Below, in pieces: positions 3,119 to 58,969 of a stretch of 64,000 nt of DNA. Source of the DNA: Paludibacteraceae bacterium (GTDB lineage: Bacteria; Bacteroidota; Bacteroidia; Bacteroidales; Paludibacteraceae); NCBI GenBank assembly GCA_017430235.1, contig JAFRNH010000008.1:2173-66172 (forward strand), read 5' to 3'. The position numbers and the translations under genes are program-made. Numbering within the stretch: position 1 is the stretch's first letter; every line of letters starts with the position of its first letter. The notes below the pieces were generated by a model that did no database searches, was not told the DNA's origin, and worked only from the letters and a program-made list of their open reading frames with translations.

Positions 3119-4474
3119 TTAAGCCAACTCCTTGCGCAGATAGTCTAATCCTTCACGCACAATGCGTTGTGTCTCAATCTTTGAAGTACATACGAATTCA
3201 CACAAAGCGAAATCCTCTGGTGCCACTTCATAGATACCCAGCTGCTCCATCTTATCAATGTCTTTTGCTATGATAGCCTTAACCAAGAACTCTGGATAGA
3301 TGTCCATAGGGAATACCTTATCATACTCACCAGACATGATGAAAGCACGCTGACCACCATTCAAATTGGTATCTATATTATACTCTTTCTTACTTCCAAG
3401 TAACCATGAGAAATAAGAACGGCTAACACTGAACTTATTCAAACGAGGTCTGATCCATCCCAACATTTCATCATTCTTATCACCCTCTGGAATAACAGTG
3501 ATTTGAGCATCAAAGGCGCCTAAGAAACCATCAGCAGGGATTTGTGTTCCCGTCAATGGGTTACCACTGATGTAACGCACATTATCACCCACGATGTTGT
3601 TGGCTACAATGTTACTGATGCATTCACCCACAGTCATCTTGTAATAAGCAGGATTCTTAACACCTGCACCATTCAAGACAATTGAACGTGCAAAGCTAAT
3701 CTGACCTGTCTTAAATGCAGCACCAATCATAGCTACATCCAACGCATTGACAGTCCATACGATATCACCCTTATTGATTGGATCAACATGATGAATCTGT
3801 ACACCCACGTTACCAGCAGGATGAGGACCTAAGAACTGATGGATTTCAATACCCTTTGTATGTGTATACAAATTAGAAGATACCTCTGCATTAATACCCA
3901 CGTGAATCTTACCTTTGGTCAATTTAGCCAATGCATCGATTCCCAATTGGAAATCCTCTTCACGACCTACCAAAAGGTATTCGTAATTAGGTGCCAATGG
4001 AGCGGAGTCAAATCCAGAGATAAAGATTGACTTCGGACAATCATTTGGATCTGCGATTACATCATACGGACGTTGTTTAATGAAGGCAAAGAAACCTGCA
4101 TTCAACAATGTCTCTTTCACGTTCTCAGGTGTCATCTCTGAAGGGCGACCCTTAGGAAATGACTCAGAAGTGAACTGACGATCTGATTTCAAACGAATGT
4201 CTAGTACCTTTCGTTTGTCTCCTCTATTCACGGCGAGGACCTCACCGCTGACAGGAGAAACGAATTTTAATTCTGGGTTCGTTTTGCTATAAAACAAAAC
4301 GGTCCCGACCTTCACCGCATCTCCCTCATGGACAACCACTTTGGGTTTTATGCCGTGAAAATCATCAGGTCTGACAGAAAACAAGTCAGAAGCTTCTGCT
4401 TTCGCAGAAACTTCTTGAGCTTTTCCTTTCAAATTGATGTCTAGACCTTTTTTAATTCTAATCACCTCAGACAT
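3119..4474 (-). CDS. nqrA: Na+-translocating NADH:quinone oxidoreductase subunit A
   Basis: 451-aa soluble protein and first gene of the nqr cluster, with an NqrA-like N-terminus (IKKGLDINLKGKA). Confidence 0.9.
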   Translation of the reverse strand: MSEVIRIKKGLDINLKGKAQEVSAKAEASDLFSVRPDDFHGIKPKVVVHEGDAVKVGTVLFYSKTNPELKFVSPVSGEVLAVNRGDKRKVLDIRLKSDRQFTSESFPKGRPSEMTPENVKETLLNAGFFAFIKQRPYDVIADPNDCPKSIFISGFDSAPLAPNYEYLLVGREEDFQLGIDALAKLTKGKIHVGINAEVSSNLYTHTKGIEIHQFLGPHPAGNVGVQIHHVDPINKGDIVWTVNALDVAMIGAAFKTGQISFARSIVLNGAGVKNPAYYKMTVGECISNIVANNIVGDNVRYISGNPLTGTQIPADGFLGAFDAQITVIPEGDKNDEMLGWIRPRLNKFSVSRSYFSWLLGSKKEYNIDTNLNGGQRAFIMSGEYDKVFPMDIYPEFLVKAIIAKDIDKMEQLGIYEVAPEDFALCEFVCTSKIETQRIVREGLDYLRKELA

Positions 4475-4504
4475 AAATATTTATTTAATTGTAAATTACT
4501 CGAA

Positions 4505-5275
4505 TTAGCCTCTGATTATACCCCTTTGTGAAGATTTTATAAAATCAACAATTAAACTTTTTTCATCAGAATCCTCCACATCCGAAATAATTTTCTCTAT
4601 TGCTTGTGTCGTATTCAAATCAGACTGATATACATAACGATAAATACTCTGAATACGATCTATTTGTTCGTTTGTAAATCCACGTCGACGTAGTCCGACA
4701 ATATTCAACCCCACATAATTCAAAGGGTCCCTTCCTGCCGTCACATACGGAGGCACATCCTTACCCACACGAGAGCCACCCTGAACAATCACATGCGCAC
4801 CAATACGGGAGAATTGATGAACCAAGATTCCTCCAGAAAGGATTGCCCAGTCATCAATGACCACCTCTCCTGCAATTTGAGAAGCATTACCTATTATAAT
4901 ATTATTGCCCAACTTACAATCATGCGCAATATGAGAATAAGCCATTAATAAACAATTGGAACCAACAATTGTAGTTCCTTTGGATGCCGTACCTCTGTTA
5001 ATCGTGACACATTCACGCACTGTCGTATTATCACCCACTACGGCAGTCGTCTCTTCTCCTCTGAATTTCAAATCTTGGGGAATAGCCGAAATTACCGCAT
5101 TCGGAAATACACGCACATTCTTACCAATTCTGGCACCACTTAAAATAGTGGCGTGCGCCATAATTAAACATCCATCTCCAATTTCTACATTCTTATCAAT
5201 GTAAACGAACGGGCCAATCTCAACATTGGCCCCGATTTTCGCTTCGGGATGGATAAAAGACATTTCTTGTACCAT
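4505..5275 (-). CDS. lpxA: acyl-ACP--UDP-N-acetylglucosamine O-acyltransferase
   Basis: 256 aa with left-handed beta-helix hexapeptide repeats and an LpxA-type C-terminal helical domain. Lies downstream of lpxC/fabZ. Confidence 0.9.
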   Translation of the reverse strand: MVQEMSFIHPEAKIGANVEIGPFVYIDKNVEIGDGCLIMAHATILSGARIGKNVRVFPNAVISAIPQDLKFRGEETTAVVGDNTTVRECVTINRGTASKGTTIVGSNCLLMAYSHIAHDCKLGNNIIIGNASQIAGEVVIDDWAILSGGILVHQFSRIGAHVIVQGGSRVGKDVPPYVTAGRDPLNYVGLNIVGLRRRGFTNEQIDRIQSIYRYVYQSDLNTTQAIEKIISDVEDSDEKSLIVDFIKSSQRGIIRG

Positions 5276-49171: not shown

Positions 49172-50080
49172 ATGACTCCCAAATACTCAAATGAAAAATA
49201 TTGGTTTGACTTTGCCTCTCAAAACATCGGGCAACCCATCGACATCTTTTATGTCTACCCGACCATCAACTCCGAGCCTTTGAGTAACCGTGGCAGTGTG
49301 CCCTCCTACACCGACATCAAAAGAGCTGAAGTACGTAACGCCGCACGCAAAAATCAAGCCTATATTAAATCTGTCTATGCTGACGGAGATTTCAACTTTT
49401 ATGCACCCTACTACCGTCAGATGACCACCAAAGTTTTTGAAATGAGTCACACCGAGAGAAACGAACGTGCCAAACTATCCGTGTCGGATGTCAGACGCGC
49501 TTTTCAATATTATATGCGAGAATTCAACAACGGACGTCCCTATATTTTATTAAGTCACAGTCAGGGTTCTCAAATGCTTTTGGAACTACTAAAGCATGGC
49601 ATGACAGACAAGCAGTTCAGTCAAATGATTGCCGCCTATCTGATAGGCTTTGAAATCACTGAAAAAGATTTACAGAAATTCCCCAAAAGAATAATACCTG
49701 CCCAAGGAGAGTTGGACAAAGGTGTTGTGATTTCCTTTAATTCTGCCACCTCCGTTCAGGCTAAATCTCCCCTACTTGCCAACACAGTCGTCTGCATCAA
49801 TCCCCTCAATTGGAAAACAGACGAAACATTAGCACCTGCCTCCATGCACAAAGGAATTATTCGATACGATAAAAAAGCACAAGGATACAAGACCACACCT
49901 GAATTCACAAGTGTGCAAATACAAGACCACCTTCTTGTCTGCAAAGAAGTCGACCCATCCATCTGTTACAACGATAAAATCAAAGCACCGTTTCCATTGG
50001 GCAATTTGCATTTCGCCGACACATGGTTGTATGCCGCTAATTTAAAAGAAAACATGAGGAAAAGAAGTGGGTTATTATGA
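49172..50080 (+). CDS. alpha/beta-hydrolase-like protein (DUF3089-like) with no signal peptide
   Basis: 302 aa with a nucleophile-elbow-like SHSQGS. The reading frame is closed by TAA at 49130..49132, so no N-terminal signal peptide can be encoded. Family name recalled, not verified. Confidence 0.55.
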   Translation: MTPKYSNEKYWFDFASQNIGQPIDIFYVYPTINSEPLSNRGSVPSYTDIKRAEVRNAARKNQAYIKSVYADGDFNFYAPYYRQMTTKVFEMSHTERNERAKLSVSDVRRAFQYYMREFNNGRPYILLSHSQGSQMLLELLKHGMTDKQFSQMIAAYLIGFEITEKDLQKFPKRIIPAQGELDKGVVISFNSATSVQAKSPLLANTVVCINPLNWKTDETLAPASMHKGIIRYDKKAQGYKTTPEFTSVQIQDHLLVCKEVDPSICYNDKIKAPFPLGNLHFADTWLYAANLKENMRKRSGLL

Positions 50081-50101: not shown

Positions 50102-50899
50102 ATGAAAATCATTCATAGAATTGTGTTTAGACCAGACAAGACTCAAAGAAGAGTTTTGCAAGAGATTGGTATTCCTGTACCGCCAAACGAAGACCTTCCT
50201 GTTTTCGAATTTGATGAGGAACACGAAAAACTAATCAGTTTAAAACCTTATATAGACAAATGGCAATTGGTTGATAACGTCAGGACAGAGTTTACAAAAA
50301 AAGAATTAGACGCTGCATCTTTTTTGAGATGGTTTCCTCTATGGATGAACGGTTATCCAATGCCCGATGATGATTTTGGCTATATTGGTACTACATTCCA
50401 AAAACAAGGATATTGTGAAGTGTGTGGAAGCGGGTTGGTTCAGCAATCTTCGTTTAGGTTGAGGAAAGCGCCCAACTGGGGTTCTAAAAAAATTTTTGGT
50501 CTCAATTGGGTTTATGACGAAGTTTTCGTTCGAAAAGATGTATATGAGACCGTTTTTAAGAAATATGGGATAGAATCAATGCCTGTATTGCTTTACAAAA
50601 AAGATGTTATTATTGAAGATACAGTACAATTAATTATACCAACAACAGATGCATATTCAAACTTAGAAGAACAGCCTTATGAAATCTGTAAAACATGTGG
50701 GATGAAGCGATATAATCCCAAAACAAAAGGTTTTTTCCCCTCTTTTAAAGATTCTGTAACTGGGTTGCACTTATTCAAAGGCCGAGAATGGTTCGGAAGT
50801 GGAGCTATGTCATATAAGCAAATCTTTGTCTCACAAGAATTGCGACAGGAAATGATTAAATATCAAATAAAATCAGATTTCGACCCTGTCAATCAGTAA
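50102..50899 (+). CDS. double-CXXCG motif protein
   Basis: 265 aa with two CxxCG motifs, CEVCG (aa 105-109) and CKTCG (aa 196-200). Starts 21 nt after the preceding gene. Confidence 0.55.
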   Translation: MKIIHRIVFRPDKTQRRVLQEIGIPVPPNEDLPVFEFDEEHEKLISLKPYIDKWQLVDNVRTEFTKKELDAASFLRWFPLWMNGYPMPDDDFGYIGTTFQKQGYCEVCGSGLVQQSSFRLRKAPNWGSKKIFGLNWVYDEVFVRKDVYETVFKKYGIESMPVLLYKKDVIIEDTVQLIIPTTDAYSNLEEQPYEICKTCGMKRYNPKTKGFFPSFKDSVTGLHLFKGREWFGSGAMSYKQIFVSQELRQEMIKYQIKSDFDPVNQ

Positions 50900-51405: not shown

Positions 51406-52314
51406 ATGCACAATAGAGGAAGAAATTTTTGGCATTTGATGGCCATTATTACAATGATTTTTTGGGGCACGAGTTTTGTATCAACAAAAATCCTGCTCGA
51501 TTATGGTTTTTCATCCATATTCATTTTCGTCGTACGGTTTATATTCACCTATTTTTTATTGTTGGTGTTATCGCACGACATGATGTTCTCACAAAACAAG
51601 AAAGACGAATTCCAATTGTTTTTAGGCGGACTGATGGGTGGCACGCTCTATTTCTGGTTAGAAAATACTGCACTCTCCCACTCTCCTTCTTCAAACGTTT
51701 CTCTTCTTGTGTGCACGAGTCCGCTGATCATCTTAATCATTGTCAGTCTGATTTTTAAGAAAGAGACATTGAAGAAAAGACAGGTGGCTGGTTCATTGCT
51801 CACCTTTCTCGGAATGGTCCTTGTGGTATTAAATGGACATTTTTGTCTGAAATTATCACCCAAAGGAGATTTATTAGCATTAGGCGCAGCACTAGTATGG
51901 GTTGTCTACTCCATCAGTGTGAAGAGATTGCATAAAAAATATTCCACTCTTTTCATCACAAGAAAAGTCTTTTTCTATAGTTGTCTAACAGCAATACCCT
52001 TGCTTCCATTAGACAACGCCATCATTCCATGGGAAAATTTCTTAATACCCACCGTGATTATAAATTTCCTATTACTGGCAATTTTTTCCTCTCTATTTGG
52101 GTATCTGGTCTGGAACCTTGTACAGAGAGAACTAGGTGCCGTGTTGGCCTCCAACTACATCTATTCGATGCCGTTGATCACAATCATCACAGCAGTAATC
52201 GTATTAGACGAGCAAGTGACATGGGTAGCACTTTTCGGTGCATTCGCCATTGTGACCGGAATGGTATTAGCAGAATATAACGGGAAGAAGAAGCCCGTAT
52301 CAGAAAAGGCGTGA
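51406..52314 (+). CDS. DMT-superfamily (EamA-like) transporter
   Basis: 302 aa with ten predicted TM segments in two EamA-like halves. Confidence 0.8.
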   Translation: MHNRGRNFWHLMAIITMIFWGTSFVSTKILLDYGFSSIFIFVVRFIFTYFLLLVLSHDMMFSQNKKDEFQLFLGGLMGGTLYFWLENTALSHSPSSNVSLLVCTSPLIILIIVSLIFKKETLKKRQVAGSLLTFLGMVLVVLNGHFCLKLSPKGDLLALGAALVWVVYSISVKRLHKKYSTLFITRKVFFYSCLTAIPLLPLDNAIIPWENFLIPTVIINFLLLAIFSSLFGYLVWNLVQRELGAVLASNYIYSMPLITIITAVIVLDEQVTWVALFGAFAIVTGMVLAEYNGKKKPVSEKA

Positions 52315-52589: not shown

Positions 52590-53378
52590 ATGAAGAAAAT
52601 TTCAGCAAAAACAAGATCTCTTATAAGTAAGGGGATTACCTCATTGTTATCAGCAATGGGATTTGTCACGTTGCACGCAGAAGAAAACAAGATTGATCCA
52701 GTCGAGCCTTATGATCGTGACACAATTAAAGAATTCAACTACGAAGACCAAACTGTGTTATTGTATGGCTGTCCATACGCCCACTACAAATTCACAGGAC
52801 ATGTTATTGACAAGGAGGGAAATCCACTAAGCAATGTGGAAATTCTATTTGAAGAGTGTGATAGAGATGGTGTTATAGCAAGCGTAAAAGACACATCAGA
52901 CGAGAACGGAGAATTTAAAGTGGAATACTCATATGCTCCTTGGTGCGATATAAAGATATCAGCAAAGAACGATTTCTCTGCTGCTTATGATTCTATTTCA
53001 AAAGAAGACATTGAAAAAGAAACTGCGACTACACGACAAGGATGGTATTATGGCTTATACAGCAAAGATTTAACCATCATCCTAAATGACAAGGGAGAAT
53101 TAGGCAAAATCATATTCAACAGCACAGCAAACATCGATGATCCGAATGCAGAAAAAGTCCTATTGTTCTCAAACCCAGTAGAAAATTATTTGTGGTTTAA
53201 CATAGACGGCGCAGAAGATGCCAATGTTGCTATTTATAATTTCGCCGGAGAGAAAGTGATGAACGCCATCATTTCAAACGGAAGCAACCTTTACGTAGGT
53301 GATCTTAAGCGTGGAAATTACATATTGACTGTCATTTCCAACGACAAAAAATATGTTGCTAAATTCATAAAAAAATAA
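52590..53378 (+). CDS. exported partner protein of the radical SAM enzyme, with a LYGCP motif, a carboxypeptidase-regulatory-like fold and a T9SS C-terminal domain
   Basis: 262 aa with a hydrophobic N-terminal signal. It carries LLYGCPYAHYKFTGHVIDKEGNPLSNVEILF (aa 57-87) and a C-terminal T9SS sorting pattern (LLFSNPVENYLWF...GNYILTVIS). Confidence 0.7.
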   Translation: MKKISAKTRSLISKGITSLLSAMGFVTLHAEENKIDPVEPYDRDTIKEFNYEDQTVLLYGCPYAHYKFTGHVIDKEGNPLSNVEILFEECDRDGVIASVKDTSDENGEFKVEYSYAPWCDIKISAKNDFSAAYDSISKEDIEKETATTRQGWYYGLYSKDLTIILNDKGELGKIIFNSTANIDDPNAEKVLLFSNPVENYLWFNIDGAEDANVAIYNFAGEKVMNAIISNGSNLYVGDLKRGNYILTVISNDKKYVAKFIKK

Positions 53379-53400
53379 AATTAGCACACATCTTAACACA

Positions 53401-53436
53401 AAGGGTGTATCAAAATATGGATTTTGGTACACCCTT
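53401..53436 (+). terminator. long hairpin between the LYGCP partner gene and radical SAM paralog 1
   Basis: AAGGGTGTA-T-CAAAAT-ATGG-ATTTTG-G-TACACCCTT, giving about 15 paired bases. No T-tract follows. Confidence 0.5.
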
Positions 53437-53458
53437 TCAAATCTATAAACGAAAACCC

Positions 53459-54550
53459 ATGGAGAATCCAAAAAAAATCCCATTAAAAAAGAGACTTGCA
53501 TTTAAATTATTCGATATATATCGTCACAACGTAACCAAAGAGCACAAGCTAAATTATCTTTTCTGGGAATGCACATTACGCTGTTCGTTAAACTGCCTAC
53601 ATTGTGGCAGTGATTGTCGTCAATCTTCAGATGTCAACGACATGCCTGTCGAGGACTTCATCAAAGCCATCAAGCAAATCATGCCCATTGTCGACCCCCA
53701 TCATACCATCATCGTAATCACTGGTGGAGAGGCTCTGGTCCGAAAAGATTTGGAAGAAGCCGGACGTGAATTGTATAATCTGGGGTTTCCTTGGGGAATT
53801 GTCACCAATGGTTATTTAATGACCCCAGAAAGGATGAATTCCCTACTTCAAGCAGGAATGCGTGCTTGCACGGTAAGTCTTGACGGACTGCGCGATTCGC
53901 ACAACTGGTTGCGACAAAACGAACTATCTTTCGACCGCGCCATCAATGCCATCAAAATGCTACCAAAAACAGATCTTGAATATGATGTCATGACCTGTGT
54001 TAATAATCGCAACTTCGACGAACTACCGCAAATCAAACAGATGCTAATCGATTATGGCATAAAGAACTGGAGAATAGCAACCATTTTCCCTGTTGGAAGA
54101 GCTACAAAGAATCCTGAATTACAATTACCTGACGATAAATTCAAAGCAGTGTTCGACTTCATCGAAGAGACAAGAAAAGAGGGCAAAATAAGGACAAACT
54201 ATGGATGCGAAGGCTTCCTAGGGGATTATGAGAGTCGCGTCAGAGACAACTTCTTCTTCTGTCGTGCTGGCATCAATGTGGGCTCCATCCTCGTAGATGG
54301 AAGTATCTCTGCTTGTCCCGATTTAAGAGACCGTTTTATCCAAGGAAACATATACAAAGACAACATCGCCGACGTGTGGGAAAACAGATATCAAATCATG
54401 CGCGATCGCTCATGGACCAAAACAGGCATCTGCAAGGATTGTGAATTCTTCAGTCACTGTGAAGGAAATGGTCTGCATCTACGAAACGCAGAGACCAACG
54501 AAGTGGCATTCTGTCATTTGAAAAGAATGACAGGAGGAAAAATAATGTAA
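53459..54550 (+). CDS. radical SAM/SPASM-type enzyme, paralog 1
   Basis: CX3CX2C motif (CTLRCSLNCLHC) plus C-terminal auxiliary-cluster cysteines (FFFCRAGINVGSILVDGSISAC, GICKDCEFFSHC, AFCH). Start set at MENPKKI, as in paralog 2. The track's GTG at 53405 lies inside a hairpin. Confidence 0.85.
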   Translation: MENPKKIPLKKRLAFKLFDIYRHNVTKEHKLNYLFWECTLRCSLNCLHCGSDCRQSSDVNDMPVEDFIKAIKQIMPIVDPHHTIIVITGGEALVRKDLEEAGRELYNLGFPWGIVTNGYLMTPERMNSLLQAGMRACTVSLDGLRDSHNWLRQNELSFDRAINAIKMLPKTDLEYDVMTCVNNRNFDELPQIKQMLIDYGIKNWRIATIFPVGRATKNPELQLPDDKFKAVFDFIEETRKEGKIRTNYGCEGFLGDYESRVRDNFFFCRAGINVGSILVDGSISACPDLRDRFIQGNIYKDNIADVWENRYQIMRDRSWTKTGICKDCEFFSHCEGNGLHLRNAETNEVAFCHLKRMTGGKIM

Positions 54551-54604
54551 TATGTCACAAATATTCTTTATTTTTGTTTCACAAACAAAAATGCAACTTT
54601 GAAT

Positions 54605-54877
54605 ATGAGAAACTTCATCAGCAAAATATTACTGACCCTAATAGGCATTTTAGGATGTTCTTATTCATCCTACGCATGCCACAAAGAGAAAAAAGACACA
54701 ACTTGCACGCAAAGTCAAGCAAGAGAGAAAATCAACAAGAACGAAAAAATTAATTGTTTGTATGGCGTTCCAAGTTCTGAATTTAAGTCTGTCGAATCGA
54801 AGCAAGACAAAACGGACACCAACAACAAGAAAAAAGATAATTCTGAATCGAAAAAGAAAAGCGAGAATTCAAAGTGA
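54605..54877 (+). CDS. small Lys-rich lipoprotein with a LYGVP motif (second radical SAM partner)
   Basis: 90 aa from ATG 54605, with a lipobox (LIGILGC), CLYGVPSSEFK at aa 51-61 and a Lys/Asn/Ser-rich tail. Confidence 0.6.
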   Translation: MRNFISKILLTLIGILGCSYSSYACHKEKKDTTCTQSQAREKINKNEKINCLYGVPSSEFKSVESKQDKTDTNNKKKDNSESKKKSENSK

Positions 54878-54897
54878 TAAACGCAGCATAGAAAGAG

Positions 54898-55986
54898 ATG
54901 GAAAATCCGAAGAAGATATCTTTGAGAAACAAGATCGCACTGAAGTTATTCGATGCATATCGTCATAATGCAGCAAAGGAGCACAAGCTAACCTACCTTT
55001 TCTGGGAATGCACACTACGTTGCACATTAAATTGTTTACACTGTGGCAGTGATTGTCGACAAATATCTTCGGTGAAAGATATGCCCATAGATGATTTCAT
55101 CAACGCAGTCAAACAAATCATCCCTATCGTAGACCCTCACAAGACAATGATTGTGTTTACGGGAGGAGAAGCACTTGTGCGCAAAGACATTGAACAAGCG
55201 GGCATACAACTCTACCATCTTGGATTCCCTTGGGGTATCGTCAGCAATGGATATCTTCTCACCAAGGAGCGTCTCACATCACTACTCAACGCAGGTATGC
55301 GAGCTTGCACTATTAGTCTCGACGGACTAAAAGAATCGCACAACTGGCTCCGACAGAACGAACAATCGTTCGACCGAGCATTGAATGCCATCAAGATGTT
55401 GCCAACCACAGACTTACGGCACGATGTGGTGACTTGCGTAAACAACAGAAACTTCGACGAGTTACCACAAATCAAGCAACTGCTCATCGATTGTGGAATA
55501 AAAGAATGGAGAATCTTTACCATCTTCCCAGTAGGAAGAGCCGCCAACAACCCCGATTTACAACTATCAGACGAGAGATTCAAAGCTGTTTTCGACTTCA
55601 TTGTGGAGACTAGAAAAGAAGGCAAAATAGACCTTAGTTATGGTTGCGAAGGATTCTTGGGTGGATATGAAGGTCTTGTCCGAGATCATTTCTTCTTCTG
55701 TCGCGCAGGCATCAATGTTGGCTCCATTTTAGTGGATGGCAGCATATCAGCATGTCCCGACTTGCGAAATCGTTTCATACAAGGAAATATCTACAAAGAC
55801 AATTTTGCGGATGTATGGCAAAACAGATATCAAATCATGCGAGACCGGTCGTGGACCAAGACAGGCATTTGCAAAGATTGTGAATTCTACAAACATTGCG
55901 ATGGGAATGGATTGCACTTACGAAATGAAGAAACCAACGAATTGGCATTCTGTCATTTACATAGAATCGTTGGTGGATCTAAATAA
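54898..55986 (+). CDS. radical SAM/SPASM-type enzyme, paralog 2
   Basis: 362 aa, collinear with paralog 1 and roughly 80% identical by eye. It has the same CTLRCTLNCLHC and C-terminal Cys pattern. Confidence 0.88.
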   Translation: MENPKKISLRNKIALKLFDAYRHNAAKEHKLTYLFWECTLRCTLNCLHCGSDCRQISSVKDMPIDDFINAVKQIIPIVDPHKTMIVFTGGEALVRKDIEQAGIQLYHLGFPWGIVSNGYLLTKERLTSLLNAGMRACTISLDGLKESHNWLRQNEQSFDRALNAIKMLPTTDLRHDVVTCVNNRNFDELPQIKQLLIDCGIKEWRIFTIFPVGRAANNPDLQLSDERFKAVFDFIVETRKEGKIDLSYGCEGFLGGYEGLVRDHFFFCRAGINVGSILVDGSISACPDLRNRFIQGNIYKDNFADVWQNRYQIMRDRSWTKTGICKDCEFYKHCDGNGLHLRNEETNELAFCHLHRIVGGSK

Positions 55987-56051
55987 ACAGAAGGGTGCAG
56001 AGACCATCTGTCGGTCACGTCACAACAAGCACGACGCGCCGCAACCCCACC

Positions 56052-56125
56052 GTAGAGACGTGGCGCGCCGCGTCTCTATTGTATGTAAAATGTATGTAAA
56101 AAGACGTGGCAAGCCACGTTCCTAC
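56052..56125. repeat. two REP-like palindromes separated by an 11-bp tandem duplication
   Basis: GTAGAGACGTGGCGCGCCGCGTCTCTAT (56052..56079). TGTATGTAAAA x2 (56080..56101). GTAAAAAGACGTGGCAAGCCACGTTCCTAC (56096..56125). Confidence 0.8.
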
Positions 56126-56139
56126 CGTTTATAGAATAT

Positions 56140-56331
56140 TTATTTATGGCTATCTGTGTCGCAACAAGTACTATCAGCGTCAGACCCACCATGATGAGGA
56201 GTAACATTTCTTTCTTCCCATTCTACATCCTCGTCACCTCCATATTCACACCTGCAAGAAGAGCAAGTGATGCCTAACAATCCCAACAAACTCAACAAAA
56301 GACTTATTTTTAACTGCACTATCTTCTTCAT
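56140..56331 (-). CDS. Cys-rich acidic mini-lipoprotein
   Basis: 63 aa with a signal/lipobox-like LLGLLGITC. The mature part is SSCRCEYGGDEDVEWEERNVTPHHGGSDADSTCCDTDSHK. It converges on the radical SAM genes. Confidence 0.5.
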   Translation of the reverse strand: MKKIVQLKISLLLSLLGLLGITCSSCRCEYGGDEDVEWEERNVTPHHGGSDADSTCCDTDSHK

Positions 56332-56458: not shown

Positions 56459-58264
56459 ATGAAGAAAAAAATAATACCATTTGTGCTCGCCTCAATGAGC
56501 ATTTCAACATATGCTTACGACTATTCATCGTATTCAGCGGGCTATAGTAATTCAGATTATCGTGAAGCCATTAACATGGGCTTGAAATTTTTTGGTGGAC
56601 AGCGTTGTGGAGACAGTCACAACTGGATGCTGGTCAACAACTCAGAGCTTCAAAAGAATAATGAAGTATCTTGTCACACCCAAGATGGCAAAGGTTCTGT
56701 CAATGGTGGCGGCAATGGCAACTACGATTTAACTGGAGGATGGCATGACTGTGGAGACCACATTAAAGTGGGTACGACAATGGGTTATGCCGCAGTATCT
56801 CTGCTTATAGCATACGATGTGTGGCCAGAAGCTTTTCAAGACAATTATGACGAGGCTTACGGAGAGCCCAACCAAATTCCCGATGTGTTGGATGAAGTGA
56901 AATATGCAACCGACTATTTCATAAAATGCTTTCCAAACGACAATACGTTTGTCTATTATGTAGGTTTTGAGGGCGATCACAATGTATGGAAGACGTCTGC
57001 CAGACAATCGAAGGATAAAGTAGAAAATGGTGGTGACCCACGTCCCGTATGGACAGCGAGCGACAAAGGAGGTCCGCAAGCAGCCAACTATGCATCCGCA
57101 TTGGCATTGATGTCACTAAATTATCCAGACCAGTCATACAAAGAGTTGTGCAAGACATACGCCATCAAAGCATATAATTTTGCAAAGAAAAACAAGTCTG
57201 CACATGCAAGCATTCCTATCTTTTATTCCAATCCTAATCAAGAATGGACAGATGAGCTTGCTCTTGCTGCCATTTTACTTTACAGACTGACGGGAGAAGA
57301 GCAGTATAAGAAAGACGCTTTAAGCTACTTAAGTGGAACGTGGGAATCCAATTCTCCTTTAGCATGGGATACAGTGACCGACTTTGCATACTACTATATC
57401 GTAAAGGACGATCCAACAGCTAACAATGGACAAGGAGGAACATATCTAAGTTTCCTAGAAAAAAATGTCTATAAACTGCACATACAAGACCCACAAGAGC
57501 CAAGAAGCGACAAATCCTCTTGCACCAGCAACGGATTCCCATATTACAAAAGCAACTGGGGTACCAACAAGCTAGCACTTGGTGGTGCTGTCGCTGCAGC
57601 TTTATATGCAAAACTTGCAGAAGATGGTGTTATCACAACAACAAAAGACATCAAAAAGGCGAAAAATTTCACCCTCAGAATCATTGATTACGTATTAGGT
57701 AAAAATGAATTCAACCACACCTTCTTACATGGATTTAAGGGTGATATGACCCACAAAATACACCACCGTAATGCCATGGGAAGAAATGACAATCCGCCAA
57801 CCGACGAAAAGAACAAAGCAGAGTTCATGTTTGCCAGTGGCGGTCTGATTGGAGGACCTTCCTCCTATGGTCAATTTGGCAACGTTGTCGAAGGAGGTTC
57901 TAGTTATACGGAAACGGAAGGTGGATGTGACTACAATGCACCATTTGTGGCTGCTATGGCCAGTTTGGTAGCAGAAAAAGATCCTGTAGAATTCGTGGAT
58001 GCACCAACCACGCTATCCGACCACTCATACATGGTCTATCCTACCCTATTCGACGACTATTTCATCATTGACATGATAGAACATGCCTATGAAAAGGAGG
58101 TGATTGCACAAATCTATACAATCGACGGACAACTGATTGACGCATACGATTTGAAGGATAAAATGTCAACCATCATTCGCACAAGCAACTACGCTGCAGG
58201 CTTCTACATTGTAAAGATAACAGCCGATGGAAAGTCAGTTTCGTATAAGTTGGTTAAAAAATAG
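56459..58264 (+). CDS. glycoside hydrolase family 9 endoglucanase with a T9SS C-terminal domain
   Basis: 601 aa with GH9 signatures (DLTGGWHDCGDHIKVG, HHRNAMG, GGLIGGP, DYNAPFVAAMA) and a C-terminal sorting domain. Confidence 0.85.
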   Translation: MKKKIIPFVLASMSISTYAYDYSSYSAGYSNSDYREAINMGLKFFGGQRCGDSHNWMLVNNSELQKNNEVSCHTQDGKGSVNGGGNGNYDLTGGWHDCGDHIKVGTTMGYAAVSLLIAYDVWPEAFQDNYDEAYGEPNQIPDVLDEVKYATDYFIKCFPNDNTFVYYVGFEGDHNVWKTSARQSKDKVENGGDPRPVWTASDKGGPQAANYASALALMSLNYPDQSYKELCKTYAIKAYNFAKKNKSAHASIPIFYSNPNQEWTDELALAAILLYRLTGEEQYKKDALSYLSGTWESNSPLAWDTVTDFAYYYIVKDDPTANNGQGGTYLSFLEKNVYKLHIQDPQEPRSDKSSCTSNGFPYYKSNWGTNKLALGGAVAAALYAKLAEDGVITTTKDIKKAKNFTLRIIDYVLGKNEFNHTFLHGFKGDMTHKIHHRNAMGRNDNPPTDEKNKAEFMFASGGLIGGPSSYGQFGNVVEGGSSYTETEGGCDYNAPFVAAMASLVAEKDPVEFVDAPTTLSDHSYMVYPTLFDDYFIIDMIEHAYEKEVIAQIYTIDGQLIDAYDLKDKMSTIIRTSNYAAGFYIVKITADGKSVSYKLVKK

Positions 58265-58282: not shown

Positions 58283-58969
58283 ATGAAAATAAAGATATTC
58301 ATTATTGTGATTCTACTTCTCCTTATCGGAGGAGGTATCTTCTTCGGAATACGTTACTATTATGTATTTGGCGAAGGAGTGAAAAGTGGAGAATTAAATT
58401 ATGTTGTAAAAAAAGGGTATGTATTCAAAACATACGAAGGAAAAATGATTCAGAGTGGATTCAAGAGTTCCCCAAAAGCTGGTGCTATTCAATCCAACGA
58501 GTTCATATTCTCCATTGAAGACAAAGAAACGGCAGAAAAACTAATGACAATGGGAGGAAGACAAATCGATGTTCACTACAAAGAGTATTTTCATTCCCTT
58601 CCATGGAGAGGCAATAGCGAATTTGTCGTAGATAGTTTCGTCATTAAAGTTGAAAACATATCATTAGACAAAATCAAGTTAGACCTTGTCATCGGCGACA
58701 AAGAGAGACTCGCCGCCTCTGTTTATCCAGAAGATGCATCCAATCAAACAATAAATTGGACATCCTCCAACGACAATATCGTTTCAGTCACATCCGATGG
58801 AAGCATCGTGGCAAAAGCAGACGGCAAAGCCACTATCTATGCATCTGTCGAAAATAAAACAGTTAGCTGCGAAGTGTTTGTAAGCGACAAAAAGAAGGAA
58901 ACAGAATCCCTCGATTGGCATCCACGATCAAGAAGCAATGAACCTCAAGAATATTACGAAGAATATTAA
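58283..58969 (+). CDS. membrane-anchored protein with a Big_2 (bacterial Ig-like) domain
   Basis: 228 aa with an N-terminal TM segment and a Big_2-like segment (LAASVYPEDASNQTINWTSSNDNIVSVTSDGSIVAKADGKATIYA). Confidence 0.65.
   Translation: MKIKIFIIVILLLLIGGGIFFGIRYYYVFGEGVKSGELNYVVKKGYVFKTYEGKMIQSGFKSSPKAGAIQSNEFIFSIEDKETAEKLMTMGGRQIDVHYKEYFHSLPWRGNSEFVVDSFVIKVENISLDKIKLDLVIGDKERLAASVYPEDASNQTINWTSSNDNIVSVTSDGSIVAKADGKATIYASVENKTVSCEVFVSDKKKETESLDWHPRSRSNEPQEYYEEY

Follow-up and report, generated by a model that had tools for sequence, protein, structure and literature searches.

Radical SAM/SPASM enzymes paired with exported x-Y-G-x-P partner proteins at a Paludibacteraceae locus, and a candidate site of protein modification

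The stretch of DNA analysed here (64,000 nucleotides, hereafter the window) comes from a Paludibacteraceae bacterium (GenBank assembly GCA_017430235.1, contig JAFRNH010000008.1), and the present study concerns its region 52590-56331, which holds two modules of a radical S-adenosylmethionine (SAM) system, each composed of an exported partner protein and a radical SAM/SPASM enzyme. Four genes lie on the plus strand in the order P1, rSAM-A, P3 and rSAM-B, and a fifth gene, P5, converges on them from the minus strand. P1 (partner A, 262 aa) is located at 52590..53378, with an L-Y-G-C-P motif at 52761..52775 which is its candidate modification site, and is followed by rSAM-A (363 aa) at 53459..54550. 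P3 (partner B) is located at 54605..54877 and has 90 aa when read from the ATG at 54605, the mechanical open reading frame (ORF) call having started from the TTG at 54599; apart from this ORF call it is backed by synteny. A motif scan places L-Y-G-V-P at 54758..54772 in P3, which is followed by rSAM-B (362 aa) at 54898..55986. P5, a convergent mini-lipoprotein of 63 aa called from synteny and conservation, occupies 56140..56331 and has E-Y-G-G at 56236-56247.

Both enzymes belong to the NCBIfam family TIGR04133 (curated cutoff 425 bits), for which rSAM-A scores 559.9 and rSAM-B 565.6 bits, each covering positions 1-349 of the 350 in the profile, and both match the Pfam models Radical_SAM and SPASM. 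BLASTP aligns them without gaps, with 289 identities in 360 positions (80%), and both start with MENPKKI. A preliminary description of the region had estimated the identity at about 80% for two 362-aa paralogs with this start; its coordinates hold as well, but rSAM-A is one residue longer than it had given. The radical SAM cluster motif is C42-x3-C46-x2-C49, at 53582-53605 in rSAM-A and 55021-55044 in rSAM-B. The longer form read earlier, CTLRC[S/T]LNCLHC, contains these three cysteines, but its extra leading one (C38) is variable across the TIGR04133 family. The SPASM cysteines of rSAM-A fall within 54206-54517, and C250, C268, C286, C325, C328, C334 and C352 are invariant in 20 TIGR04133 members. 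In the AlphaFold2 model of rSAM-A (predicted TM-score 0.78), the core is a TIM barrel preceded by an N-terminal helix at residues 9-28, and the recognition element (RRE) of RiPPs, i.e. peptides that ribosomes synthesize and that are modified after translation, is not found. The structures nearest to this model are SkfB, SuiB, PqqE and the anaerobic sulfatase-maturating enzyme (anSME, TM-score about 0.62), all of them peptide- or protein-modifying SPASM/twitch enzymes. The second enzyme, rSAM-B, is intact and constrained, with 86-91% identity to its orthologs.

The pairing of enzyme and partner was surveyed in 80 genome loci with enzyme relatives at 59-99% identity, which are the best-scoring of at least 591 and which span Bacteroidales, Marinilabiliales, Lentimicrobium, Prolixibacteraceae and other groups. 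Pairing was counted wherever an enzyme gene had 700 nt or more of sequence upstream (n=81). An exported YGxP ORF is found upstream on the same strand in 81 of the 81, with one such ORF in 68, two in 12 and three in 1, and in most loci the stop codon of the partner overlaps the start of the enzyme gene. The adjacency, which had been set beforehand as a refuting test of the proposed pairing, is thus universal among these orthologous genes. The identical partner-enzyme arrangement also occurs in a Chlorobi-labelled metagenome-assembled genome (MAG). All-vs-all clustering of the ORFs of at least 90 aa in the 80 loci reveals no other conserved neighbour (protease, transporter or RRE), and the pair is a self-contained two-gene module.

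TIGR04133 and the partner family TIGR04134 ('radical SAM-associated putative lipoprotein') together are the catalogued, uncharacterized 'rSAM/lipoprotein system' of Bacteroidota, labelled 'hypoth_equivalog' in NCBIfam and 'radical SAM enzyme (rSAM/lipoprotein system)' by JGI. By their profile scores, this is the Bacteroidales family pair that the preliminary description had named. The partner-then-enzyme order and the YGxP motif are common to that system and the window. Unlike in the catalogued system, partner A of the window is not a lipoprotein, partner B and P5 are mini-lipoproteins outside any model, and side-by-side modules are seen only in the window lineage. As to the extent of the family in the databases, matches at E<=1e-30 number more than 6,990 among protein clusters at 90% identity and 349 among representatives at 50% identity. 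Only one full text citing either accession was found, a review on type IX secretion (the T9SS; PMC11611037), in which 'TIGR04134' denotes the type-B C-terminal domain (CTD) of T9SS cargo; this conflicts with NCBIfam and is an apparent slip. In addition, distant TIGR04133-like enzymes (30-37% identity, with TIGR04133 as the best NCBIfam match, below its cutoff) occur as fusions: some chains contain two rSAM-SPASM units (P0246, P0249, P0254, P0262), others have a C-terminal multi-pass HExxH M50-like domain (P0304, P0311), and still others a C-terminal JAMM-like HxHx7Sx2D domain (P0240, P0303). The Pfam matches of these M50-like and JAMM-like peptidase domains are sub-threshold, and the catalytic motifs are present.

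YGxP is found in 93 of the 95 partners defined by homology, in agreement with the conservation that the preliminary description had expected, and the two exceptions are one partner cut by a contig end and one paralog in locus L015. Based on 92 non-redundant partners, the consensus (with residue counts) is E(67)/L/M-Y(92)-G(92)-[T46 C17 V11]-P(92)-x-A(80)-x-[F64/Y24]-[I/K]-[V/F]-x-G(83)-x-V(70), and the distance from the lipobox Cys to the Tyr is mostly 6-10 residues. Tyr and Gly are constant in 92 of 92, while the position ahead of Tyr is occupied by E, L, M, A, K, I or Q, with differences even inside one protein. Tandem repeats of the motif such as MYGSPxVEYGTP occur in 19 of the 92. Two YGxP copies 6-10 residues apart are seen in many partners (L026, L052, L060, L064, L068 and others), e.g. 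EYGTPAVEYGTP. The signal peptide of the partners also has unusually conserved positions (K..LK.YN.LI..LL..LGF..C), and in the A-type partners conservation covers the signal peptide and the motif but skips the roughly 30 residues between them. At the DNA level, the 64 kb contain TTGTATGGCNNNCCA at two positions only, 52761 and 54758, with 0.01 occurrences expected. The shared motif DNA noted earlier is hence exact at both positions, but it consists merely of the codons for L-Y-G-x-P and adds nothing beyond the protein motif, so it was rejected as an extra signal.

Partner A is a T9SS-tailed variant. P1 comprises a type-I signal peptide, a variable linker, L58-Y-G-C-P62, a beta-sandwich (64-177) and a T9SS type-A CTD (193-262). 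Its score against TIGR04134 is 48 bits (cutoff 39.8), with residues 56-166 on profile positions 30-149, as compared with 67-116 bits for canonical partners. The CTD is recognized by TIGR04183 (45.6 bits, cutoff 23) and by PF18962, Por_Secre_tail (29.8 bits, cutoff 27), and a CarboxypepD_reg match stays below its cutoff (20.6 vs 32.3 bits). P1 and all A-type homologs lack the lipoprotein feature: no Cys precedes the motif, and they have a signal of type I (..LHA/EE..) together with the T9SS CTD instead. The P1-type homologs form about 19 clusters, each of about 260 aa, and the T9SS form is confined to a Paludibacteraceae clade. In an alignment of 20 homologs, Y59, G60, C61, P62 and A64 are invariant and the signal peptide is conserved, while residues 26-57 are variable. 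In the AlphaFold2 model of P1, residues 1-62 are disordered, the sandwich at 64-177 has per-residue confidence (pLDDT) mostly of 80-90, and a second, C-terminal sandwich at 189-261 corresponds to the CTD; YGCP thus stands at the end of the disordered N-terminal segment, directly before strand 1. A structure search with the model returned generic prealbumin/CarboxypepD_reg-like sandwiches only, and no informative match. Overall, in partner A the T9SS sorting domain has replaced the lipid anchor. With the lipobox of other partners this makes two surface-display routes on one motif-plus-domain, which argues that the product works at the cell surface, and surface export by lipoprotein or T9SS routes, as suggested in the preliminary description, is plausible. 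A divergent T9SS-type partner, P0019, with the motif AYGCP, is present in locus L084 (3001-3801) and is followed by an unrelated lipoprotein gene (3853-4566).

Partner B is much smaller. P3 has a signal with lipobox, a Cys-containing linker, C-L-Y-G-V-P-S-S-E-F and a low-complexity tail rich in K, S, D and N, without the beta-sandwich, so that it keeps little besides the export signal, a few conserved cysteines and the motif. Neither P3 nor P5 has any NCBIfam match even at E<=10, TIGR04134 included, and P3 has no Pfam match. Mini-partners with the motif kept are located upstream of B-type enzymes in L001, L002, L083 and L007. Such proteins, of 80-108 aa in L002, L007 (91 aa) and L054 (80 aa), fall outside TIGR04134, and therefore standard annotation would show rSAM-B as an orphan. 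The beta-sandwich is lost and the signal and YGxP are kept in P3, in the 91-aa protein of L007 and in the 80-aa protein of L054; the last, a Prevotellaceae mini-partner at 3695-3937, is barely more than a signal and KYGMPISKYGMPP. That partners without the sandwich retain the motif argues that the motif is not merely a fold element. Between the window and L007, P3 is 47% identical with the motif block intact. The mini-partner is a conserved gene in three lineages and not a one-off truncation, and the earlier idea of a freshly truncated second substrate is accordingly abandoned.

P5, the third small exported ORF of the preliminary description, is a real conserved gene; the E-Y-G following its lipobox had been missed there. 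After the lipobox Cys23 it reads S-S-C-R-C-E-Y-G-G-D-E-D-V-E-W-E-E-R and continues into a variable acidic tail. It is conserved and syntenic in L001 (100%), L002 (60%), L083 and L007 (49%), and it adjoins rSAM-B in every B-type locus. The invariant block extends from the lipobox through C-E-Y-G-G-x-E-D-x-E-W-E-E-R, while the tail drifts. By a strict scan, P5 is the sole ORF in the 64 kb in which a lipoprotein signal is combined with a YG no more than 15 residues from the Cys, and a metagenome scan for its relatives gave one contig, of the same lineage as L002. Judged by these sequence features, P5 is a credible candidate for a third substrate.

The two modules are long-separated paralogs. In a neighbour-joining tree the Paludibacteraceae enzymes fall into three clades, namely A with T9SS-type partners, B (which includes rSAM-B) with mini-partners, and C with a single standard lipoprotein of 150 aa or two of them. 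Clade A is sister to clade B, and at the DNA level the copies in the window share 75% identity. In L007 the order is OadB - DUF3089 - P3 - rSAM-B - P5 - GH9 - Big2, i.e. the B module alone at the same chromosomal position; the window shows the L007 frame with [265-aa ORF - EamA - P1 - rSAM-A] inserted between DUF3089 and P3, and L002 has the same insertion minus the 265-aa ORF. The A module is found elsewhere in at least eight other genomes, e.g. between an amino-acid kinase gene and leuA, and several genomes have A and C modules at separate loci. A recent tandem duplication is rejected on the basis of the 75% DNA identity, the membership in separate clades, the solitary B module of L007 and the A modules at other loci; since B stands alone in L007 and A occurs at other loci, the side-by-side layout would most simply be a secondary juxtaposition. 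Hence the two-gene modules, each with an exported LYGxP partner, are upheld from the preliminary description, but its term 'tandemly duplicated' was misleading for two old sister clades. A gene of the DUF3089 family stands directly 5' of a partner-type gene in three arrangements (window 49172-50080, plus strand; L007 2656-3561, before a mini-partner; L084 2031-2954, before a T9SS-type partner), and this neighbourhood may mark an ancestral site for the module. Among the genomes compared, the closest locus is L001, from a rumen 'Bacteroidales' MAG, with 99% identity in rSAM-A and 97% over 9 kb of DNA; after it come MAGs of Paludibacteraceae that were obtained from rumen and from horse faeces.

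Several neighbouring features complete the region. An EamA-family transporter gene (51406..52314, plus strand; Pfam EamA 140 bits) is given for context only: it adjoins the A module at one locus type (window, L001, L002) and is not kept with the system elsewhere. The 265-aa ORF (50102-50899, plus strand) has two CxxC pairs and no Pfam or NCBIfam match; its presence in the window and L001 and its absence from the otherwise syntenic L002 indicate a lineage-specific insertion beside the EamA gene. In a search for RNA elements with Rfam, the sole match is IS605-orfB-I at 50273-50458, on the opposite strand inside this ORF and sub-threshold (26.6 bits vs 94.2). A terminator-like hairpin at 56104..56119 (minus strand), directly 3' of the P5 stop codon, is a consensus match only. 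Downstream lies the gene of a GH9 glycoside hydrolase whose C-terminus carries a T9SS sorting domain (56459-58264, plus strand), followed by that of a Big_2-domain protein (58283-58969, plus strand); in L007, L001 and L002 the two genes keep synteny with the B module, and no functional tie to the rSAM system is evident. The sorting domain of the GH9 protein shows that the organism uses T9SS.

From these observations we infer that the enzyme probably modifies the Tyr-Gly of the adjacent exported partner before Sec export. In each module a cytoplasmic TIGR04133 enzyme would be co-transcribed with its partner and would modify it post-translationally, ahead of Sec export; if the partner is the substrate, the modification must precede translocation, since the enzyme is cytoplasmic and the partner exported. 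The predicted site is the invariant Tyr-Gly of x-Y-G-x-P, which lies after the export signal, in the flexible segment that leads up to the first beta-strand, and the conserved signal peptide would probably double as a recognition (leader) element. The modified partner would then be displayed at the surface, either lipid-anchored (canonical partners), or T9SS-sorted (partner A), or as a short lipopeptide (partner B and possibly P5). The fit to a maturase and its precursor comes from the strict pairing without a third gene, the invariance of Tyr-Gly with a tolerant X, the repeated sites, and the survival of the motif where the fold is lost. The peptidase-like fusions in the wider clade may lend weak support to this maturase-precursor reading.

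Among known systems, anSME is a precedent for such timing: it is a cytoplasmic SPASM enzyme, common in Bacteroidota, which converts Cys or Ser to formylglycine in full-length sulfatases, at a short motif near the N-terminus and before Sec export. It differs in the motif (C/S-x-P/A-x-R vs x-Y-G-x-P here), the window partners are not sulfatases, and TIGR04133 stands in strict pairing with its partner, whereas the sulfatases that depend on anSME genes are many and unlinked; among the 25 best NCBIfam matches listed there is no anSME model. As for T9SS type-A cargo (TIGR04183/PF18962), partner A has a bona fide CTD and an N-terminal Sec signal, the CTD being found also in the GH9 protein 3 kb downstream, and the searchable literature yielded no report of T9SS cargo that forms a pair with a radical SAM enzyme of its own.

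For the logic of the motif (variable X, invariant Y and G, repeats), the closest functional analogy would be the spliceases. These SPASM enzymes cut a tyramine equivalent out of X-Y-G, a motif that requires Y and G but tolerates different residues at X; frequently they act at more than one site of a precursor, and they can process whole proteins and do without a separate RRE given a leader helix (PMC11414181, PMC9811515, PMC11626197). In binary systems a leader helix takes the place of the RRE protein, and whole proteins can be spliced once tagged (PMC11414181, PMC10533398, PMC11626197), and the published splice tags include AVAAMYGVVFP and PIRPGYGLPI, the latter being an XYGxP sequence. In the known members (PlpX, PcpX, RhaX, RcsX, RasX; TIGR04103), tyramine excision gives alpha-keto-beta-amino acids. 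A SPASM enzyme beside its substrate or partner, an invariant Tyr-Gly, a variable X and multiple sites are common to the spliceases and the present system, and the X-Y-G itself is present in the neighbours of the enzymes, as LYG in P1 and P3 and as EYG in P5. TIGR04103 is the best full-length non-self match of rSAM-A (128.3 bits; 126 bits for rSAM-B). An authentic PlpX, found via its precursor PlpA3, scores 824 bits with TIGR04103 and has TIGR04133 as its fifth-best family (148 bits, full length). BLASTP gives 27% identity over 332 aa between rSAM-A and PlpX, collinear over the full length. Of the seven SPASM cysteines in TIGR04133, six have a cysteine of PlpX as their aligned counterpart and the remaining one, C250, has Asn. 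On the other hand, no PlpY-like gene is present here, Pro at +3 is invariant, and the partners are Sec-exported lipoproteins or T9SS cargo of 90-260 aa rather than Nif11/NHLP-leader peptides. To judge from the sequences and the model, the conserved signal peptide and the enzyme helix 9-28 could serve the leader or accessory role.

Splicing-type chemistry, for which this analogy speaks, is a possibility that we hold tentatively. Still broader, and in our opinion on the unlikely side, is the proposal that TIGR04133 constitutes a large unrecognized protein-editing branch, in which tyramine would be excised from full-length Sec substrates with the signal peptide as leader, leaving an electrophilic alpha-keto-beta-amino acid near the membrane anchor of surface lipoproteins and in T9SS cargo. 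No paper tying spliceotides to lipoproteins was found in the searchable literature, and an earlier treatment of TIGR04133 in work on splicease diversity is possible.

Several points weigh against modification at Tyr-Gly, or against the splicing form of it. Membership in the splicease family is rejected for the window enzymes, as the 128 bits of rSAM-A lie far below the TIGR04103 cutoff of 725. Moreover, the tetrapyrrole-modifying AhbD and NirJ2, together with TIGR04053, are as similar to TIGR04133 as the spliceases are, so that sequence places the family in the SPASM neighbourhood and does not single out splicing. The extended motif reaches into strand 1 (A+5, F/Y+7, G+11, V+13), hence part of its conservation is structural. 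In L015, a TIGR04134-like paralog (3481-3993; 22.7 bits, under the cutoff) has naturally lost the Tyr-Gly motif and reads CDCIL instead of EYGCP, while the second partner of that locus retains EYGCP. P5 lacks the Pro (EYGG) and is found in three lineages only. P0019 has no rSAM gene in the roughly 0.7 kb left downstream on its contig, where an enzyme acting in trans or lying farther away is possible. A search for enzyme residues covarying with X was uninformative, as the single A+B clade dominated and the independent non-E lineages kept the majority residues. Lastly, no report of any modification by this system was found in the searchable literature.

The partner may be the substrate and Tyr-Gly the site with a chemistry other than splicing, and we regard this as possible, if somewhat doubtful; such chemistry could be epimerization, beta-hydroxylation, desaturation or a Tyr-centred C-C or C-O crosslink, for example a cyclophane over the three residues Y-G-x or a Glu-Tyr link of the PqqE kind. 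The SPASM enzymes nearest in fold, SkfB, SuiB, PqqE and anSME, carry out crosslinks or Calpha/Cbeta oxidations, T, C, V, A, S, M and D, the residues that occur at x, all offer a Cbeta-H for crosslinking, and the sequence similarity to spliceases is not distinctive. The E before Y in about 70% of the motifs recalls the Glu-Tyr pair joined by PqqE, but L, M, A or K replaces it in many partners, including both of the window, so that a Glu-Tyr link is not universal; and the signature of the spliceases, unlike that of the known cyclophane and PqqE-type sites, is an invariant Gly together with variation in the preceding residue.

That the partner is not the substrate, or the motif not the site, is unlikely even when the two are taken together, and each of them by itself is quite improbable. 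The former would have the enzyme act on a small molecule or cofactor (e.g. a tetrapyrrole, like AhbD and NirJ) whose product the exported partner binds, carries or uses outside the cell; here the scores of AhbD, NirJ2 and TIGR04053, which equal those of peptide maturases against TIGR04133 members, and a partner sandwich without informative structural match are in its favour. However, no transporter or biosynthetic gene is conserved with the pair, the mini-partners, which have no folded domain, keep YGxP and the adjacency, motif repeats together with a conserved signal peptide are typical of precursor-maturase pairs, and relatives carry peptidase-like fusions. The latter would make YGxP a structural or sorting element, i.e. 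the start of the sandwich or a cue for surface export and anchoring, with the enzyme modifying another partner residue or none, and P3 and P5 being decaying, functionless remnants. The continuation of the motif into strand 1 with its conserved A, F/Y, G and V agrees with this, as does the low-complexity tail of P3, and the acidic residues between the Cys and the motif may resemble the surface-export signals of Bacteroidota lipoproteins. Yet the motif is kept in the T9SS-type partners about 28 residues after the type-I cleavage site, where lipoprotein sorting is irrelevant, and in mini-partners without the sandwich; and remnants in decay do not fit with P3 (47%) and P5 (49%), which between the window and L007 have kept the motif block while their tails diverged, or with an intact rSAM-B at 86-91% identity to its orthologs.

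The rSAM/lipoprotein pair is among the most widespread orphan radical SAM systems in Bacteroidota and has stood as a 'hypothetical equivalog' in databases for more than 10 years. What is new here are the lineage variants, i.e. the T9SS-tailed partner, the mini-lipoprotein partners and the convergent EYG lipoprotein. They amount to natural experiments, in which the partner loses its lipid anchor or its whole folded domain and yet the export signal and x-Y-G-x-P stay; because both survive the two losses, the minimal substrate is likely about 90 aa, and the variants point to the motif as the functional core. The tie of the motif logic to tyramine splicing gives a specific prediction, a mass change of -135.07 Da (C8H9NO). 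If splicing were true, backbone-edited residues would be common on Bacteroidota surfaces, with a bearing on the interplay of host and microbe proteases and on protein engineering. If the family were indeed a protein-editing branch, thousands of Bacteroidota, gut and rumen commensals included, would display backbone-edited, potentially protease-inhibiting or reactive surface proteins, and such chemistry would have its first lipid-anchored RiPP-like products in the mini-lipoproteins of 90 and 63 aa. A long-standing orphan family thereby becomes a directly testable hypothesis.

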